From: Candidatus Saccharimonadota bacterium
GTDB lineage: Bacteria; Patescibacteriota; Saccharimonadia; Saccharimonadales; Saccharimonadaceae
Direction of reading: 5' to 3'
NCBI GenBank assembly: GCA_016866755.1
Contig: VGLK01000005.1
Location: 10,272 to 74,271 of the forward strand
DNA length: 64,000 nucleotides
Shown here: one piece after another, positions 3,880 to 61,257 of the stretch
How the letters are laid out: every line of letters starts with the position of its first letter
Position numbering within the stretch: position 1 is the first letter of the stretch
Program-made: the position numbers and the translations under genes
Notes under the pieces: generated by a model
The model's input: the letters and a program-made list of their open reading frames with translations, nothing else
Database searches by the model: none
Told to the model about the DNA's origin: nothing

Positions 3880-4821
3880 TTAACGTCGGTATTGAATTTG
3901 CTTTGTACGTTCTAATTGATCTTCAGCTAAGATTCGATTTGCACGTTGCAACTCGGCAATAACCATAAGTGCAAAGCAAAACAGGGCAATTGCAAGAAAT
4001 ACCGATCCAAACAGGAGCGACTGCAGGTGCTGACCTTGTATTCCTAGGGCGAATAAAATGGCAAAACGTACAAACGGCACCAGCCCAACAGCTAAGGCAA
4101 TACCGCCGAGCAGACCGAAAAACACAAGCGGTTTAAAAAGGAGATAACTGCGGATAATAGCTTTAGCTGATTGCGCCATATGCTGCCAAATGTTTTTAAA
4201 TAGCCGTGATTCACGAGTTTTAGGATTTGTGGTTATCGGAATACTTACAATTGCTAAGCGTTTTTGACCAGCTTGAATAATTGTTTCCATACAGTAACTA
4301 AACTGCGTGAAAATGTTTAACCGTAACAAAGAATTACGGGAGTAGGCACGAAATCCGCTGGCGGCATCGGGGAGTTTGGTGTCGGCGGCATAATTTACCA
4401 CCCAACTACCGAATTGCTGCATTTTTTTCTTAAAGAAAGAGAAATGCTCAATGGTGGCAGTCTGGCGATCAGCAATAACAATATCGGCTCGCCCCTCGAT
4501 GATTGGCTGTACAAGATCGGCAATTTTATCTTGTGGGTACTGATTATCGCCGTCGGTATTAACGACAATATCTGCGCCATGACTAAGGGCGTAATCTATG
4601 CCGTCACGAAACGAGCGAGCTAACCCCATATTACGGGTGTGGTGTACAAAGTGGGTAACGCCAAACTCCTTAGCAATTTTTACAGTGCTATCGGTGGAGC
4701 CGTCGTCAACAATCAATATCTCAATTTCACTAACGCCAGCAATCCTTTTAGGAATAGAATTAAGAACCAGTGGCAAGGTTGATTCTTCGTTAAGGCACGG
4801 AATTTGAACAAAAACTTTCAT
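3880..4821 (-). CDS. glycosyltransferase family 2 (Dpm1/GtrB-like) with C-terminal TM helices
   Basis: VQIPCLNEE, IVDDGSTD, NTDGDNQY (DxD). Start moved to the internal ATG at 4821 (MKVFVQIP), which removes the overlap with galE. Confidence 0.85.
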   Translation of the reverse strand: MKVFVQIPCLNEESTLPLVLNSIPKRIAGVSEIEILIVDDGSTDSTVKIAKEFGVTHFVHHTRNMGLARSFRDGIDYALSHGADIVVNTDGDNQYPQDKIADLVQPIIEGRADIVIADRQTATIEHFSFFKKKMQQFGSWVVNYAADTKLPDAASGFRAYSRNSLLRLNIFTQFSYCMETIIQAGQKRLAIVSIPITTNPKTRESRLFKNIWQHMAQSAKAIIRSYLLFKPLVFFGLLGGIALAVGLVPFVRFAILFALGIQGQHLQSLLFGSVFLAIALFCFALMVIAELQRANRILAEDQLERTKQIQYRR

Positions 4822-4838
4822 ACTGCTTAGTATACCAT

Positions 4839-5849
4839 TTAGCGATAGCCGTTTGGATTTTGCGATTGCCAGCGCCACGAATCACGGCAGGCATCAGCAA
4901 TAGACTTAGTTGGGTGCCAATTAAGTTCTTGTGCAGCCTTTTGGGAGTCGGCGTAGCACTCGGCAATGTCGCCGGGGCGACGAGCAACAATGCGGTATGG
5001 CAGTTCTTTTTTGCAGGCGGCACTAAAGGCAGAGATTAGCTCTAATACAGATGTTCCTTTACCAGTACCTAGGTTGTAGGTATGGACTCCAGGTTGTGCT
5101 GGAGCGAGGGCGGCAACGTGTCCGCGCGCCAAATCTACCACGTGAATGTAGTCACGCACTCCGGTGCCATCAGGGGTTGGGTAATCATCTCCGAACACCT
5201 GTACTTCTGGGCGCTTACCTACCGCAACTTGGGCAATGTAGGGAAGAAGATTATTAGGAACGTCGTGCGGATCTTCGCCTATAGCGCCGCTTTCGTGTGC
5301 GCCAATTGGATTAAAGTAGCGCAAAAGGGTAATTGCTACCGTGGGGTTGCTCTGTGCAAAATCACGCATTATTTGCTCAATCATATATTTTGTGTGGCCG
5401 TAGGGATTAGTGATACCAATACCTGTGCGGCTATTTTCAGTTAGTGGCAAAGACTCCGGCGTACCGTATACAGTGGCCGAAGAGCTGAAAATAAGGTGAG
5501 GAATGTGATATTTTTTAATTACCGAAAGAAGATTAAGACTGGAAGTGATATTGGTTGAGTAATAGCGAAGCGGATTTTGAACCGACTCGCCAACCGATTT
5601 CAAGCCAGCAAAATGAATAATTGCATCAAACGGCTGGTGAGAGAAGAGTTGATCGAGAGCTTGAGCGTTGCAGACGTCAAGCTGGTGAAATGGTATAGAG
5701 ACGTCGAGCATTTTTTCTACGCGGCGTACGGCTTCGACGGAGCTGTTCGCCAGATTATCGGCTACTTCGGCGGTGTGTCCGGCGTGGTAAAGTTCGATAA
5801 GTGTGTGACTGCCAATGTAGCCGGCACCACCGGTAACAAGAATATGCAT
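4839..5849 (-). CDS. galE: UDP-glucose 4-epimerase
   Basis: MHILVTGGAGYIGSH Rossmann motif, YGHTK catalytic motif, length 336 aa. Confidence 0.9.
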   Translation of the reverse strand: MHILVTGGAGYIGSHTLIELYHAGHTAEVADNLANSSVEAVRRVEKMLDVSIPFHQLDVCNAQALDQLFSHQPFDAIIHFAGLKSVGESVQNPLRYYSTNITSSLNLLSVIKKYHIPHLIFSSSATVYGTPESLPLTENSRTGIGITNPYGHTKYMIEQIMRDFAQSNPTVAITLLRYFNPIGAHESGAIGEDPHDVPNNLLPYIAQVAVGKRPEVQVFGDDYPTPDGTGVRDYIHVVDLARGHVAALAPAQPGVHTYNLGTGKGTSVLELISAFSAACKKELPYRIVARRPGDIAECYADSQKAAQELNWHPTKSIADACRDSWRWQSQNPNGYR

Positions 5850-5906
5850 AGCCTTAACTATACTATATTTTAAGCCTAAGCGTCGAGCTTATGGTATAGT
5901 GAGGGT

Positions 5907-6947
5907 ATGATTACCGTGATTATCGCCGGAGGGTCGGGTACGCGCCTATGGCCGCTCTCCACACCAGAGTACCCAAAGCATTTATTGAAGCTAACTTCGG
6001 AACGTTCGATGTTGCAGCAGGCCTATGATCGCGCCTCTCACCTTGGCGACACCGTGTATGTAGTAACCGAGGCTAGTCATTCCGACCATGTCTACGAACA
6101 GCTGAGTGAGCTCGACCCCTCGCATATTTTAATTGAACCAGGACGCAGGGGAACTGCGCACTGTATCATTTTTGCGCTTGATTACATTGCTCGCCACCAT
6201 GATAAAAACGAGCCGGTGGCCTTTATTCACTCCGATCACCATGTGCGTGATACCACTGGTTTTGCTCAGTCGTTTAATCTCGCTGCCCGTATTTCAGGTG
6301 AGCAGCAGGCAATTACGCTTATTGGGATTGAGCCAACGTTTCCAGCGACTGGATTTGGTTATATTGAGCGTGACGGCGTACTCGATGCTGATCGAGGCGT
6401 ATATAGCGTACACAGCTTTAAAGAAAAGCCTGATTACGACACTGCCCAAGGTTACGTTGAATCTGGCCGCTACCTGTGGAACTGTGGGTACTTTGTGGGT
6501 TCGGTTGATGTATTCTTGCGTGAAATGAATCGTTCAGCGCCGGATCTTCTAGCTACATTCGAAGCGCTTGCAGCCCAGCCATCTCACGGAGACGATGCCT
6601 ACAATGCGGCGTATTTGAGTCTAGGAAATGAAGTAATTGACACGGCTTTAATTGAAAAAGCTCAGGCATTGGCGGTGGTTTCGGCCGACTTTGACTGGAT
6701 GGACGTAGGAAACTTTAAAGACTTACATGACGTGGTGCCGCGCGACGAAGCCGGCAATTACGTACACGGACAAAACGTACACGGACTCGATATCGAAAAC
6801 GTCTATGTTCGCAACGAAGAAGAAAAACCAATTGCAGTAATCGGTCTTGATAATATTGTAGTAGTAAATACCGCCGAGGGTATTTTAATCTCTCGTAAAG
6901 ATGTGTCTCATCGAACTGGCGAAGTAGCTAAAAAGCTACAGGCCTAA
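5907..6947 (+). CDS. manC: mannose-1-phosphate guanylyltransferase (nucleotidyltransferase domain only)
   Basis: IIAGGSGTRLWPLS motif; 346 aa; no PMI/cupin C-terminal domain recognised. Confidence 0.8.
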   Translation: MITVIIAGGSGTRLWPLSTPEYPKHLLKLTSERSMLQQAYDRASHLGDTVYVVTEASHSDHVYEQLSELDPSHILIEPGRRGTAHCIIFALDYIARHHDKNEPVAFIHSDHHVRDTTGFAQSFNLAARISGEQQAITLIGIEPTFPATGFGYIERDGVLDADRGVYSVHSFKEKPDYDTAQGYVESGRYLWNCGYFVGSVDVFLREMNRSAPDLLATFEALAAQPSHGDDAYNAAYLSLGNEVIDTALIEKAQALAVVSADFDWMDVGNFKDLHDVVPRDEAGNYVHGQNVHGLDIENVYVRNEEEKPIAVIGLDNIVVVNTAEGILISRKDVSHRTGEVAKKLQA

Positions 6948-6963
6948 ATAAATTCTAAGGTTT

Positions 6964-7000
6964 GAGCGCCGCACCCCCATAAAATGTGTGGCGCTCTTTT
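6964..7000 (+). terminator. rho-independent terminator after manC
   Basis: GAGCGCCGCAC / GTGTGGCGCTC stem (11 bp with one G-U) followed by TTTT. Confidence 0.6.
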
Positions 7001-7075
7001 CGTGAGCGCATACAAGTTAGGGGGTGCGGCCGCATGATGGACAGGGGAGGCTGAAGACAGAACAGCCTTCATGTA

Positions 7076-7507
7076 CTAGCCGAAGAGCGCTCTGAACGTG
7101 TCGTTCACGAAGCTGATCAACTGATCGATCCAGCCGCTCACCACGGGCGATGCGAAGTAGAGAACCGCGAGGGTGATGCCGAACATCAGTCCGCCCTTTT
7201 GGGAGGGGCGCCGCACGTAGCCGATGCCCACCCAGATGGCGACGAGTCCGAGAGCCCCCGTGATCAGCCACGTGGCCAGCCATCCGCTCTGGGAGAGCGC
7301 CACGACGGCGAGCACGGTGAACACCCAGAAGATCAGACTGACGACCCCGAGTACTGCGACCGGACCTTCTTGGCGACCCTCGTTGATGAGGGTTAGCACG
7401 ACGGCGAGTAGTCCGCAGATGACGGCAGTGAGCAGGGCGGCGGGAACCACCACGCTGCCCTCGGTGCTGATCAGCGGGCTTGCTGCAATGTACGGTATGG
7501 ATTGCAT
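7076..7507 (-). CDS. 4-TM membrane protein of unknown function, high-GC xenologue
   Basis: 143 aa hydrophobic protein. Third codon positions are almost all G/C in this frame. GGAGGTGA Shine-Dalgarno 7 nt upstream of the ATG. Confidence 0.75.
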   Translation of the reverse strand: MQSIPYIAASPLISTEGSVVVPAALLTAVICGLLAVVLTLINEGRQEGPVAVLGVVSLIFWVFTVLAVVALSQSGWLATWLITGALGLVAIWVGIGYVRRPSQKGGLMFGITLAVLYFASPVVSGWIDQLISFVNDTFRALFG

Positions 7508-7654
7508 GACATTTCACCTCCAAAAGTGTTGTCTAAATCATGCCTTTCTATCATAAAACATTCTTTTTGCAAATACAATGCCATGATTATTAATATTTTG
7601 CAAAACAGTAAAAGGGTAGTGCAGTGAGCATTAAGCGCGGTATACTAAAAGGTA

Positions 7655-9184
7655 ATGAGGCAGCAAATAGAAAAAATTTATGGCCGATTGGCATCGCCGT
7701 TATTTTTATGGCTAGTGTTTGGGTTTTTTATTCTTCAAAGCCTAGTATTTGCGGTTATTGTTGAGCCATCGTACATAGAAACTAGAAGTGACGGGTATGA
7801 GACGCGAACTGGTGGCGTAGTGCCAGATGGTAATCGGCACATTGCAGCAGTTACCTACTATGCCGAGCAGCCACTATCTGCCGGACCGTTTATACACGAT
7901 ATGTCGGCGAATGAATTATGGCTGGGCGATCTGGAACGGTTTCCAAGTTACCTCTATTATTATTTGTTAAGTTTTCCTATGCGCGTGGCCATTGGGCTTG
8001 GTTTGAGTGATGCAATGATGGTGCTAATGATTCGATTAATAGGCACGGTAGTTGGCGTAATTGGTCTGTGGGTAGTGTACAAAATTGCTCGAGAACTGCG
8101 TACTAGCCAACAGATTGCGCACTTATCGGTTTTAGCAACCGCGTTAACGGGCGTATACGCATGGTTAGCACCAGCAGAAAATTATGATATGCTGGCGCTA
8201 TTATTGTGGCTGGGATTTGTGCTTATGAGTTTGCGGCTATTTACACGCCAACATGCTAAATATCTTGTGCCTATGGCAATTTTGTTTTCTCTCGGTTCAA
8301 TTACCAAGTATACCTACATACCCTTTATGACAATTGCAGGCGGAGCGGCGCTTGCACTATATATTTATGGCTTACGTAACACCGGTGGTTTGCGAGGAGG
8401 ATTTGAGCAACTAAAGCTGTGGATAACATCGCAAAAATGGTGGAAAACTACTTTGGTGTCTCTGTTACTTGTGGTAAGTGCTGGTTTATTTACGGAACGA
8501 ATAATTGGCAATCTGCTTGTGTATCAATCGTTTAGTCCCAGCTGCGCCGTTGTACACTCCAAAGAAAATTGTGGTAATTTTGCAATTTATGATCGCAACG
8601 TTACGCGTAAGGCAGCCTACGAGGCTGAGATTGCCCGCGGCGAAACGGAGCGAGTTATTTATAATCCACTTACCTACACACCGTTTTGGATTGATCGATA
8701 TTATGCCTCGATTTTTGGTTATGTGGGGCACATATGGATTTATAACTTTTGGCCAGGAATGTACATAGGAGCAATCGCGGCTTCCCTATTAGTAGCCTTA
8801 CTACTGGTGGTGGCGAAATTACGACGAATTCGGCTGCTACAAAGTACTGGTGAACGTTGGCTGGCAGGTGTAATAGCGATGTTGGTGATTGCTCAGTACA
8901 CTATTAATGCCCGCACATTTGTAAATTATGGCGGTGAGCTATACGCCTATGCTCACCAAGGGCGATATTTACTTTCAGCTATTTGTATTGGTTATATTCT
9001 TTTGCTGTTGGTAATTACCAGAAGCTTACGCGCGCTTGCACCGTCACGTCACTATAGTTGGCTGTTGCCGCTAAGTGTACTGGTGCTTGTAGCTGCGGCG
9101 GTGACAAATATGGCATTAGTTACGTTTTTTGTGCATGCTACAGGTAGCGATTGGTATTCAACATTTGCCGAAAATTTACTATAG
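7655..9184 (+). CDS. large polytopic membrane protein, possibly GT-C-fold glycosyltransferase (PMT_2/ArnT-like)
   Basis: 509 aa with more than 10 hydrophobic spans, in glycan-cluster context; function is a guess. Confidence 0.4.
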   Translation: MRQQIEKIYGRLASPLFLWLVFGFFILQSLVFAVIVEPSYIETRSDGYETRTGGVVPDGNRHIAAVTYYAEQPLSAGPFIHDMSANELWLGDLERFPSYLYYYLLSFPMRVAIGLGLSDAMMVLMIRLIGTVVGVIGLWVVYKIARELRTSQQIAHLSVLATALTGVYAWLAPAENYDMLALLLWLGFVLMSLRLFTRQHAKYLVPMAILFSLGSITKYTYIPFMTIAGGAALALYIYGLRNTGGLRGGFEQLKLWITSQKWWKTTLVSLLLVVSAGLFTERIIGNLLVYQSFSPSCAVVHSKENCGNFAIYDRNVTRKAAYEAEIARGETERVIYNPLTYTPFWIDRYYASIFGYVGHIWIYNFWPGMYIGAIAASLLVALLLVVAKLRRIRLLQSTGERWLAGVIAMLVIAQYTINARTFVNYGGELYAYAHQGRYLLSAICIGYILLLLVITRSLRALAPSRHYSWLLPLSVLVLVAAAVTNMALVTFFVHATGSDWYSTFAENLL

Positions 9185-56103: not shown

Positions 56104-56505
56104 CTAGTGGGAAACCGTGTAGCTGAACTTGAACGTGACGCTGTCGTAGGTGTGCGGGTCGTACTTCTCCGGCTCCCACTTGGTGATGGTGATGGCGGTC
56201 TTGTCGAGCTTGAGCGGCAGCGCAGCAGTGCTAAGGCGCTTGATGATCTCGTGCTTGAGCGGCGGCAGCATGTCCCTCTCGAAACGCGACCGCTTGATGC
56301 CCTTGGGCACGTGGTGGTAGGTGAAGAGAACTTCGAACTTGCCATCGGTACGTACGTTGTTGATGCTGCGGCGAAGGCTCTTGGTGCGATCAGCCACACG
56401 AATGGCGATGATGGGCACGTGCGTGTCCCGCCATACCGTGAACGACTGGGCGCGCTTATTTCTGCTGTTCGGCGACAGCAGGTCTTTCATGTCACGAGCA
56501 CGCAT
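56104..56505 (-). CDS. hypothetical protein, high-GC xenologue
   Basis: 133 aa; strongly G/C-ending codons in this frame only; AGGAGA SD; AT-rich native-looking upstream region. Confidence 0.65.
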   Translation of the reverse strand: MRARDMKDLLSPNSRNKRAQSFTVWRDTHVPIIAIRVADRTKSLRRSINNVRTDGKFEVLFTYHHVPKGIKRSRFERDMLPPLKHEIIKRLSTAALPLKLDKTAITITKWEPEKYDPHTYDSVTFKFSYTVSH

Positions 56506-60047: not shown

Positions 60048-60085
60048 GTCTGGCGCGTCACGTAAAAATGTGTGACGCGCCAGAC
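60048..60085. terminator. perfect 14-bp inverted repeat downstream of the high-GC gene 60118..61020
   Basis: GTCTGGCGCGTCAC-10 nt-GTGACGCGCCAGAC; no U-tract on the minus strand. Confidence 0.5.
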
Positions 60086-60117: not shown

Positions 60118-61020
60118 TTATGGAAGCCGCATGTAGGCATTCTGGTCGATGAGCGACTTAAGCTCCTCGAGCTGATCCTTCAGGCGCCAGCCATCTTTGA
60201 TGTGGTGCAGGTTGTGCAGGTCTTTCGTGTCGTCTTCTCCTCTCACGTTGATGGTGACGGTGTAGTTGTTCCATCCGAACAGACGAGAGAAAAACCCGTG
60301 CTTTACATCGACGTAGTCGAGATTGGAGATGAAGTAGGTTTTTGGCCGCTTAATGAGGAGCCACCGCAGGCTTTGGGCTTTGTCGAGGTAGATTCGAGTC
60401 GAATCGTATCCCAGCCTCCAGCCGCGATAGTTAATCTGTGTGCGGCGGATAGCGAGCCCACACACGACGCCACCAATCAGACCAACCCAGATGCCAAATG
60501 CGCTACCGGATTGATCGCCTTCGGTAAACACTGCCGACCAAAAGCTCAGCAAAAAGATGAGCGCAAACGTGGCTGCCACAACCCCCCAGCCAACCACGCG
60601 CTTCAGAAACGAGAAAATGAACTTGTTCTCGCGGTACTGGTAGGCGCGCGGTTCGGTTGAGGGCAACGATGGATCTTGCGGGTGATACGGCGACCAGCGC
60701 GAGTTTGCGACTCGGTGCTGGTGTTGTGTCGAGCTCATGCGCGACGTCTCCTCGTACGAGGCTTGGTTGTCGCGAAGGGTTGGAATCGGCTCGGTGCGCT
60801 GAGAATCACTGCTGCGCTCATACCAGGCACCGTTCACAAAAACCGCATCGGTTTCTAGAGCGCTAGCGTGCGACTGAGGCTGGACAGACTGAACGCGTGG
60901 CTCAGCCTGCTCGGCGGCCGGTGTGCTAGCCGATCTGCTAGAATCGACCGGCTCAGGCTTTGTTTCGGTTTGCTCGCGCATGTGGCGGTAGATATTTTTA
61001 ACATCGTCAAAGTATCCCAT
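60118..61020 (-). CDS. membrane protein with bacterial PH (bPH_2/YdbT-like) domain, high-GC xenologue
   Basis: Disordered N-terminus, 2 TM, C-terminal YFISNLDYVDVKHGFFSRLFGWNNYTVTINV; G/C-ending codons; ATG 61020 preceded by AAGGAG. Confidence 0.7.
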   Translation of the reverse strand: MGYFDDVKNIYRHMREQTETKPEPVDSSRSASTPAAEQAEPRVQSVQPQSHASALETDAVFVNGAWYERSSDSQRTEPIPTLRDNQASYEETSRMSSTQHQHRVANSRWSPYHPQDPSLPSTEPRAYQYRENKFIFSFLKRVVGWGVVAATFALIFLLSFWSAVFTEGDQSGSAFGIWVGLIGGVVCGLAIRRTQINYRGWRLGYDSTRIYLDKAQSLRWLLIKRPKTYFISNLDYVDVKHGFFSRLFGWNNYTVTINVRGEDDTKDLHNLHHIKDGWRLKDQLEELKSLIDQNAYMRLP

Positions 61021-61257
61021 GATACTCACACTCCTTGTGTGGTGCAAAAAAGGTTCAAACTGCATAGGTCGTAACGTCTACAATCCCTACGCTATATTAA
61101 ACTGCTAATTTGTATATTTGTAAAACATAAGCCTAAATATTAGATACTATCTGTACTGTTGTGCATACTACATATGTATAAGAGGTGAGGTAAAAAGTTG
61201 TATTGTGCCTATGGTGAGCAGTGTGTTTAAATTTAAACATTACTAACAAGGAGAGTT

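Follow-up and report, generated by a model that had tools for sequence, protein, structure and literature searches.

The gene at positions 7076-7507 (minus strand) of the DNA stretch analysed here is real, compositionally foreign and an orphan, and it is probably functional. The stretch, hereafter the window, comprises 64,000 nucleotides (nt) of the Candidatus Saccharimonadota bacterium assembly GCA_016866755.1 (contig VGLK01000005.1, positions 10,272 to 74,271; C5:10272-74271 in our contig numbering). The gene encodes a predicted membrane protein of 143 amino acids (aa) and sits alone in a glycan locus that varies even between genomes of the same genus. In our estimate, the chances are about even that it is an accessory membrane gene acquired horizontally from a high-GC gene pool; no donor or homologue turned up in any library searched. 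This reading is based on a G+C content about 4.4 standard deviations (SD) above the window mean, on a G+C content at third codon positions (GC3) of 0.82 against 0.41 in native genes, on shifted codons and amino acids, and on absence from 60 relatives. The gene fits a pool of roughly 60-68% GC rather than its own genome of 45% GC in base composition, in codon choice and in the amino acids of its product.

The gene most likely arrived horizontally as an accessory gene. It would form a self-contained single-gene unit between the terminator of a manC-like gene and the promoter region of a GT-C glycosyltransferase gene. Transcription would probably start from a promoter in the AT-rich divergent intergenic region, be followed by translation from a strong ribosome-binding site and end in GC-rich hairpins. 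Acquisition, promoter and terminator function, expression and membrane topology are inferred. Some 25-30 genes of this genome, the 143-aa gene among them, are GC-rich in this way.

The host genome (848,146 bp, 7 contigs, 99.8% complete) has a G+C content of 45.2%, and the window one of 44.6% (432-nt windows: mean 0.447, SD 0.041). An earlier note on this DNA had described the coding sequence (CDS) as GC-rich and alien in codon usage, and the windowed GC and GC3 analysis it had proposed bears this out. The CDS is intact, has 63.0% G+C and is the richest in the window; the nine GC-richest 432-nt windows of the stretch all lie at 6961-7141. G+C at the first, second and third codon positions is 0.62/0.45/0.82. 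The native GC3 has an SD of 0.077 around its mean (rough gene call, 853 open reading frames (ORFs), genome-wide). Third bases are C (0.52), G (0.30), A (0.12) and T (0.06), and GTC, CTC, CCC and TCC are favoured, codons which the native genes avoid. The protein itself is also shifted: its FYMINK fraction (residues F, Y, M, I, N and K) is 0.19 vs 0.28 +/- 0.04 in native proteins, R/(R+K) is 0.75 vs 0.53, and Arg:Lys is 4:1. Under the Lawrence-Ochman regressions, the three codon-position values point to a source of roughly 57-68% GC. Decoding poses no obstacle to GC-rich codons, as GNN anticodons for most four-codon boxes are found among the 41 tRNA genes of the genome.

The GC-rich block extends over about 6964-7523. 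The compositional shift had been placed at 7020, but the 60-nt profile has already reached 0.55 at 6981 and is down to 0.28 at 7521, and the onset lies at about 6964-6981 rather than sharply at 7020.

Two native causes of the high GC3 were ruled out. Hydrophobic amino-acid bias does not produce it, because GC3 stays at or below 0.47 in all 66 native hydrophobic proteins. Translational selection or native expression tuning does not account for it either, since EF-Tu and about 30 ribosomal-protein genes have GC3 of only 0.28-0.45.

The CDS looks coding in view of its codon-position GC periodicity, its Shine-Dalgarno (SD) sequence and its four transmembrane (TM) peaks. The strong SD sequence reported earlier is indeed present (GGAGGTGA). 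GC-rich DNA yields long ORFs in several frames, and the spurious ones reported here were recovered at 7017-7523 (-), 7199-7396 (+) and 7224-7556 (+). Three contig ends of this assembly have 67-72% GC, so the assembly tends to break at such DNA. Both facts would suit an artefact, that is a chimera, contamination or GC-rich non-coding DNA with a chance ORF, which we nevertheless regard as barely credible. Only the frame of 7076-7507 combines GC3 > GC1 > GC2, the SD sequence, an ATG and four hydrophobic helices at regular spacing. Some 7 kb of the window precede the gene, and the contig around it measures 74.7 kb; the conserved genes of this contig are most closely related to genes in dozens of Candidatus Saccharibacteria assemblies. 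The same locus was found on five contigs from five samples (Logan SRR7008010, SRR7979708 and SRR7989281; JGI 3300020109 and 3300020222). All five carry the exact 143-aa protein, identical neighbours on both sides and both junctions, with 0-2 mismatches to the window across 2-11.6 kb. No mismatch falls in or beside the gene, except for one base at a contig end. An assembly chimera was ruled out by this agreement of five samples and two assembly pipelines over both junctions.

The search for relatives of the protein that the earlier note had called for was run and gave none in any library. Either the protein itself or nothing at all came back from each of the following: a word-seeded search of 5.8 billion protein clusters, phmmer run in full over 1.84 billion representatives (standing for about 15 billion proteins), PDB sequences, tblastn against 50,697 phage records, and the profiles of Pfam (E <= 0.1), NCBIfam, PHROGs and PADLOC. 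None of 60 relatives carries the gene, the two same-genus genomes included, and no homologue was found in other Saccharibacteria genomes. The tblastn search of 72,556 plasmids gave one match at E = 0.5, an Arthrobacter ORF.

The earlier note had proposed capture from a high-GC actinobacterial host or its phages. The foreign composition and the absence from the 60 relatives stand; the named donor is unsupported. The note itself had counted a lack of actinobacterial homologues against such a donor, and matches were confined to the same organism, with no actinobacterial homologue, so the specific donor claim fails on the note's own terms. As actinobacterial donors had been named in advance, 401 genomes of Actinomycetes (the class containing Arthrobacter) were searched. 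Three of them gave a per-genome E <= 1e-3 vs about 0.4 expected by chance. The best match (per-genome E 1.7e-5, about 0.007 after correction for 401 genomes) was a 137-aa membrane protein with 52% identity over 42 residues of the TM2-TM3 hairpin, from a family present in 19 of the 401 genomes. The similarity peaks with one family member rather than with the family consensus and covers a single hydrophobic hairpin. Proteins of this family (about 110-137 aa; motif RRRHLMDP...VQRW...SPWLLLG) have three helices, and the cytoplasmic motif conserved at their N-terminus is missing from the 143-aa protein. The hhalign probability was 31%, and the family was rejected as an unproven relative. The Arthrobacter plasmid lead was rejected as well: the similarity lies in the family's variable hairpin and not in its conserved N-terminus, with a profile probability of 26%.

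Direct capture from an actinobacterial host chromosome, plasmid or phage, a special case of acquisition, is unlikely in our judgement. Such a route is favoured by the way of life of cultured Saccharibacteria, which live on Actinomycetota as epibionts and take up DNA. The codon usage also agrees with it: GC 0.63, GC3 0.82 and the preference of C over G are of a generic type seen in high-GC genomes, though not specific to Actinomycetota. The GC-rich hairpins without a good U-tract resemble terminators reported for Actinomycetota, another island protein of this genome bears an LGFP repeat, and the TM2-TM3 similarity to the 137-aa family and to the plasmid ORF points weakly the same way. Against this, both leads fail the profile tests, the hairpin similarity is strongest to one member, no match is significant library-wide or occurs in phages or PHROGs, the other two orphans of the window have no homologue either, and the promoter is AT-rich and native in style.

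By itself, the 143-aa gene is one more compositionally odd orphan of limited weight; its class is the more interesting lead. The genome contains about 20 GC-rich islets and about 25-30 genes with GC3 > 0.62, about 3% of its genes. Two more of them lie in the window on the minus strand, as the earlier note had seen, although it had begun the third gene at its ATG at 61020 (Table 1). The 133-aa protein is native-like in amino-acid make-up. Neither it nor the 315-aa protein has a homologue in the 5.8 billion protein clusters; all three class members searched at scale are orphans. Signal peptides or transmembrane segments are predicted in 10 of the 16 GC-rich genes examined, whose products would be envelope or secreted proteins. 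None of the 19 proteins of the class scanned against Pfam reaches a family's curated threshold; the weak sub-threshold matches of island proteins in Pfam and NCBIfam are to ParA-like proteins, LGFP, the TasA signal region and SipW-like proteins. In this 0.85 Mb genome, the GC-rich genes behind promoters of native appearance thus amount to about 3% of all genes, and many encode predicted envelope proteins. In an epibiont on other bacteria, such genes are natural candidates for host-interaction factors.

The GC-rich genes have a layout in common: an AT-rich promoter, then a GC-rich block running from the 5' untranslated region through the CDS to a long hairpin. Thirteen islet genes were compared with native genes. 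Their G+C content is 34% vs 40% in the native genes at -130..-31 upstream, 47% vs 37% in the last 30 nt before the start, 61% vs 45% in the CDS and 57% vs 38% in the 80 nt after the stop. Hence the GC-rich block matches the predicted transcript in extent rather than some arbitrary piece of DNA. Most genes of the class are followed by long GC-rich hairpins that lack good U-tracts; a perfect long hairpin, GTCTGGCGCGTCAC...GTGACGCGCCAGAC, stands at 60048-60085, 3' of the third orphan.

The most GC-rich gene of the genome (C2:897-1430, GC3 0.99) serves as an internal control. It has a weak TasA-like signal region and is accompanied by a SipW-like peptidase. Relatives with about 40% identity occur in five other genera of the family, and the gene lies downstream of ileS in this genome and in four further genera (G174, G303, G211 and G065). 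The GC profiles of these ileS loci are closely parallel, with an AT-rich dip, a 600-nt block of 60-75% GC and a second moderate block. GC3 is 0.77-0.99 in all eight Saccharibacteria genomes examined, with flanks of 46-52% GC. When 185,579 species genomes were scanned with the family's two best-conserved motifs, all relatives detected belonged to Saccharibacteria or Patescibacteria. At about 40% identity, synonymous sites are saturated many times over. Either GC3 is held high in these genomes, or the TasA-like island is exchanged within a GC-rich pool restricted to Saccharibacteria. The gene does not co-diverge with IleS (r = 0.14 over 10 pairs), so both options stand. Since the gene is confined to Saccharibacteria and GC-rich across genera, high GC is not a reliable sign of recent host capture, and direct host capture is not required for the GC-rich compositional class. 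For the same reason, the inference that a GC-rich gene in Saccharibacteria was captured from an actinobacterial host is unsafe here. The TasA-like and SipW-like cluster downstream of ileS (C2:250-2556 in this genome; loci L037 and L139-L149) lies at the start of C2, and the end of C3, which carries a SipW-like fragment, may be contiguous with the C2 start and its TasA-like gene.

These results raise the possibility, the main rival to acquisition but one we hold with considerable doubt, that the 143-aa gene is a resident of a special compositional class, fast-evolving and specific to its Saccharibacteria lineage, whose high GC3 is kept in place or in a pool used by Saccharibacteria only, and that it did not come in recently from a high-GC organism. 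The force behind this could be selection acting on the mRNA, or else GC-biased gene conversion at surface-protein loci that recombine readily. The transcript-shaped blocks behind AT-rich promoters in 13 genes agree with this, as do the TasA-like GC3 values between flanks of moderate GC at about 40% protein identity, the position downstream of ileS with parallel GC profiles in five genera, the restriction of TasA-like relatives to Saccharibacteria and Patescibacteria, the native-like amino acids of the 133-aa orphan despite its GC3 of 0.84, and a promoter-like 29-mer common to two GC-rich membrane genes. However, the 143-aa gene has no homologue in other Saccharibacteria and therefore no sign of long residence, its amino-acid make-up is of the high-GC type too, and the lack of correlation between TasA-like and IleS divergence fits island exchange as well as vertical descent. 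A genome of the same family (G014) has no gene with GC3 > 0.70 in 400 kb, so the extreme GC3 set is lineage-specific. We also know of no mechanism that keeps GC3 above 0.8 in a genome at 0.41.

In more general form, it is tentatively conceivable that this lineage of Saccharibacteria keeps a gene class whose transcribed part has GC3 of 0.8-1.0 in genomes with GC3 of about 0.4, for a cause other than fresh host import. The cause could be selection on the mRNA, strong GC-biased gene conversion where surface loci recombine, or a private high-GC gene pool that only Saccharibacteria exchange. The 143-aa orphan would then be one member of this class, and the TasA-like gene beside ileS its conserved, testable example. 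Should the high GC3 prove to be maintained rather than imported, the compositional heterogeneity within this genome would be unusually strong for a bacterium and would call for a mechanism.

Four points weigh against horizontal acquisition of the 143-aa gene. Had the gene come recently from a sampled organism, without amelioration since, a donor or homologue would be expected in one of the libraries searched, and none was found. The islet promoter is AT-rich like native ones, and a transferred fragment would not obviously end at transcript boundaries. In the TasA-like case, high GC3 can persist or circulate in the lineage without fresh host import. Finally, no empty site with the two neighbours adjacent was seen in the relatives G011, G209, G032 and G248, in the same-genus genomes or in a metagenome scan, which yielded only a 45% identical relative. 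The insertion event is for this reason putative: of the single-gene insert in a glycan cluster described earlier, the lone foreign gene in a variable locus is what was confirmed.

The features of the locus and the two other orphans are collected in Table 1.

Table 1. Features of the 143-aa gene locus and further GC-rich orphans of the window
Feature	Positions	Strand	Remarks
manC-like nucleotidyltransferase gene, left neighbour	5907-6947	+	Pfam NTP_transferase 9.6e-41 and ManC_GMP_beta-helix; convergent with the 143-aa gene
Likely intrinsic terminator of manC: inner hairpin, then TCTTTTC	6964-6996	+	T-run read from the sequence
Compound long hairpin enclosing the inverted repeat	6966-7033	.	left edge of the GC-rich block; contains the nested inner hairpin
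Short GC-rich hairpin right after the stop codon	7045-7070	-	in both minimum-free-energy and centroid folds
143-aa orphan membrane protein gene	7076-7507	-	four predicted transmembrane helices and a C-terminal helix
Shine-Dalgarno sequence	7514-7521	-	6 nt 5' of the ATG; read from the sequence
Promoter-like TTGTAT-N17-TATGAT	7549-7578	-	in the AT-rich divergent intergenic region; not called by the consensus scan
PMT_2 family (GT-C) glycosyltransferase gene, right neighbour	7655-9184	+	Pfam PMT_2 1.5e-09; divergent from the 143-aa gene
Second high-GC orphan	56104-56505	-	133 aa, GC 0.58, GC3 0.84; native-like amino-acid make-up
Third high-GC orphan, predicted membrane protein	60118-61065	-	315 aa (300 aa from the ATG at 61020), GC 0.55, GC3 0.66

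The perfect 11-nt inverted repeat described earlier, GCCGCACCCCC (6968-6978) and GGGGGTGCGGC (7020-7030), was confirmed, with 41 nt between its arms. Its 11-mer has three occurrences at no more than one mismatch vs 0.47 expected. The nested inner hairpin has 11-nt arms (6964-6974 and 6986-6996) of 91% complementarity and an 11-nt loop, and the consensus terminator scan, limited to loops of 3-8 nt, did not list it. The RNA fold of 6945-7080 reaches -61.5 kcal/mol on the plus strand (z -5.9) and -51.9 kcal/mol on the minus strand (z -5.7). Hairpins with perfect stems of at least 11 bp number four in the window vs 0.9 +/- 0.8 in shuffles, and two of the four stand directly 3' of high-GC genes, namely the 143-aa and the 315-aa gene. 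The compound hairpin is likely the terminator of the 143-aa gene. Neither a second copy of it or of either flanking intergenic region in the genome (blastn-short) nor an Rfam family matching them was found, so the structure is read as a compound terminator between convergent genes and not as a recombination scar. A repeat or mobile-element boundary was rejected on the same grounds and for the lack of attC core sites. An integron gene cassette was likewise rejected: the hairpin is unique and has no attC core sites (GTTAGGG does not fit GTTRRRY), and the gene is solitary. Cassette ORFs are promoterless and usually arrayed, and the 143-aa gene appears to have its own promoter region.

This region, the divergent intergenic region between the ATG and the PMT_2 gene, measures 147 nt and has 28-38% GC. 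The TTGTAT-N17-TATGAT element in it may act as a promoter, as its form suggests. The 29-mer at 7549-7577 is identical at 25 of 29 positions to C6:26154-26182 in the same orientation, and both copies lie upstream of GC-rich multi-helix membrane genes. The match is not significant genome-wide (E = 1.4, blastn-short), and a pattern search returned these two loci and one weak third. The shared 29-mer hints at a possible common promoter or regulator of the two membrane genes.

The four transmembrane segments proposed earlier were recovered by hydropathy, with peaks at residues 19-41, 50-72, 77-97 and 105-125, and are predicted as such. RRPSQK, the sole basic cluster, falls in the loop joining segments 3 and 4, and an N-out/C-out topology is predicted from this. 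AlphaFold2 run without an alignment placed helices at 13-42, 48-73, 75-99, 103-119 and 121-142, with a mean predicted local distance difference test score (pLDDT) of only 61. Foldseek with this low-confidence model found generic helical bundles only in the PDB (E >= 0.54).

Our best guess, made with low confidence, is that the protein has an accessory role in the envelope and might work together with the polyprenol-phosphate-sugar glycosylation genes next to it. The glycan cluster is the only positional clue to function, and a small flippase-like helper is conceivable. More specifically, the protein might be a non-homologous stand-in for a small flippase of the GtrA or SMR type, serving the polyprenol-phosphate-sugar pair of the GT2 gene (3880-4878, with C-terminal helices) and the GT-C gene; we judge this improbable. 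The GtrA and ArnE/ArnF families are of similar size and have four transmembrane helices, and the 143-aa gene lies among GT2, GT-C and sugar-nucleotide genes, where it stands between manC and the GT-C gene and has its divergent promoter region in common with the latter. A six-frame search found no PF04138 (GtrA) gene in this genome vs one in 8 of 14 control genomes. The likeness stops there: the 143-aa protein is not a member of PF04138 (no Pfam match at E <= 0.1) and has no sequence similarity to ArnE/ArnF or any other family, and the structural model is too weak for comparison. Three relatives with the same GT2 and GT-C pair have no small four-helix gene alongside, and the 143-aa gene, foreign in composition and found only once, looks like an incidental insertion.

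The glycan locus itself is differently arranged elsewhere. The manC orthologue of G011 is 76% identical and stands in a different gene context. Orthologues of the PMT_2 gene in G209, G032 and G248 (43-46% identity) have another arrangement and adjoin the orthologue of the GT2 gene. In these three other genera (loci L027-L029, cf. window 3880-9184) the GT2 and GT-C genes are directly adjacent and convergent; in this genome they are divergent, with galE, manC and the 143-aa gene in between. The two same-genus genomes share only the GT4 and Bac_transf genes of the locus, and the flanking glycan genes are not syntenic.

Some known systems are similar in part. Like phage morons and single-gene genomic islets, the 143-aa gene is one gene between unrelated neighbours with a GC content sharply off that of its flanks, and it has a putative promoter of its own, a strong ribosome-binding site and a likely hairpin terminator. 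Unlike morons, it lies in a chromosomal glycan cluster and not in a prophage. It also differs from both in that no related genome has the two neighbours adjacent and that only the transcribed part of the unit is GC-rich, the promoter being native-like. The horizontally acquired atypical orphans of classical amelioration analysis are likewise short, taxonomically restricted, without homologues and deviant in codon usage. Orphans in well-studied bacteria are usually AT-rich, whereas those described here are GC-rich. In addition, a simple amelioration picture does not predict that the TasA-like member of the class keeps high GC3 across genera. In the literature, nothing was found on GC-rich gene classes in Saccharibacteria.

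Further GC-rich islands were noted outside the window. The contig ends mentioned above are C1:1-2050, C2:51-2500 and C4:1-1350, and the assembly seems to break at GC-rich islands there. The rpsL-fusA-tuf-rpsJ region is conserved apart from GC-rich orphan ORFs scattered through it (C1:201493-202296, 209285-209710 and 215320-215727). The ORF just upstream of rpsJ has GC3 of 0.82; its counterpart in G014 is compositionally normal and apparently unrelated, and positional conservation of this islet in G014 was not seen. Two secreted proteins are encoded by an island of 68% GC at C2:93851-97250. One has 610 aa, tandem acidic repeats and an anchor at its C-terminus; the other has 291 aa and an LGFP repeat, of a type typical of Actinomycetota, and a scan of close relatives found no such LGFP protein. 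At C1:59325-67538, native genes flank seven co-oriented genes with GC3 of 0.55-0.86. A weakly ParA/MinD-like protein and several membrane proteins with multiple helices are among their products, none of which reaches the curated threshold of a Pfam family, and the group may be a transfer or secretion module.

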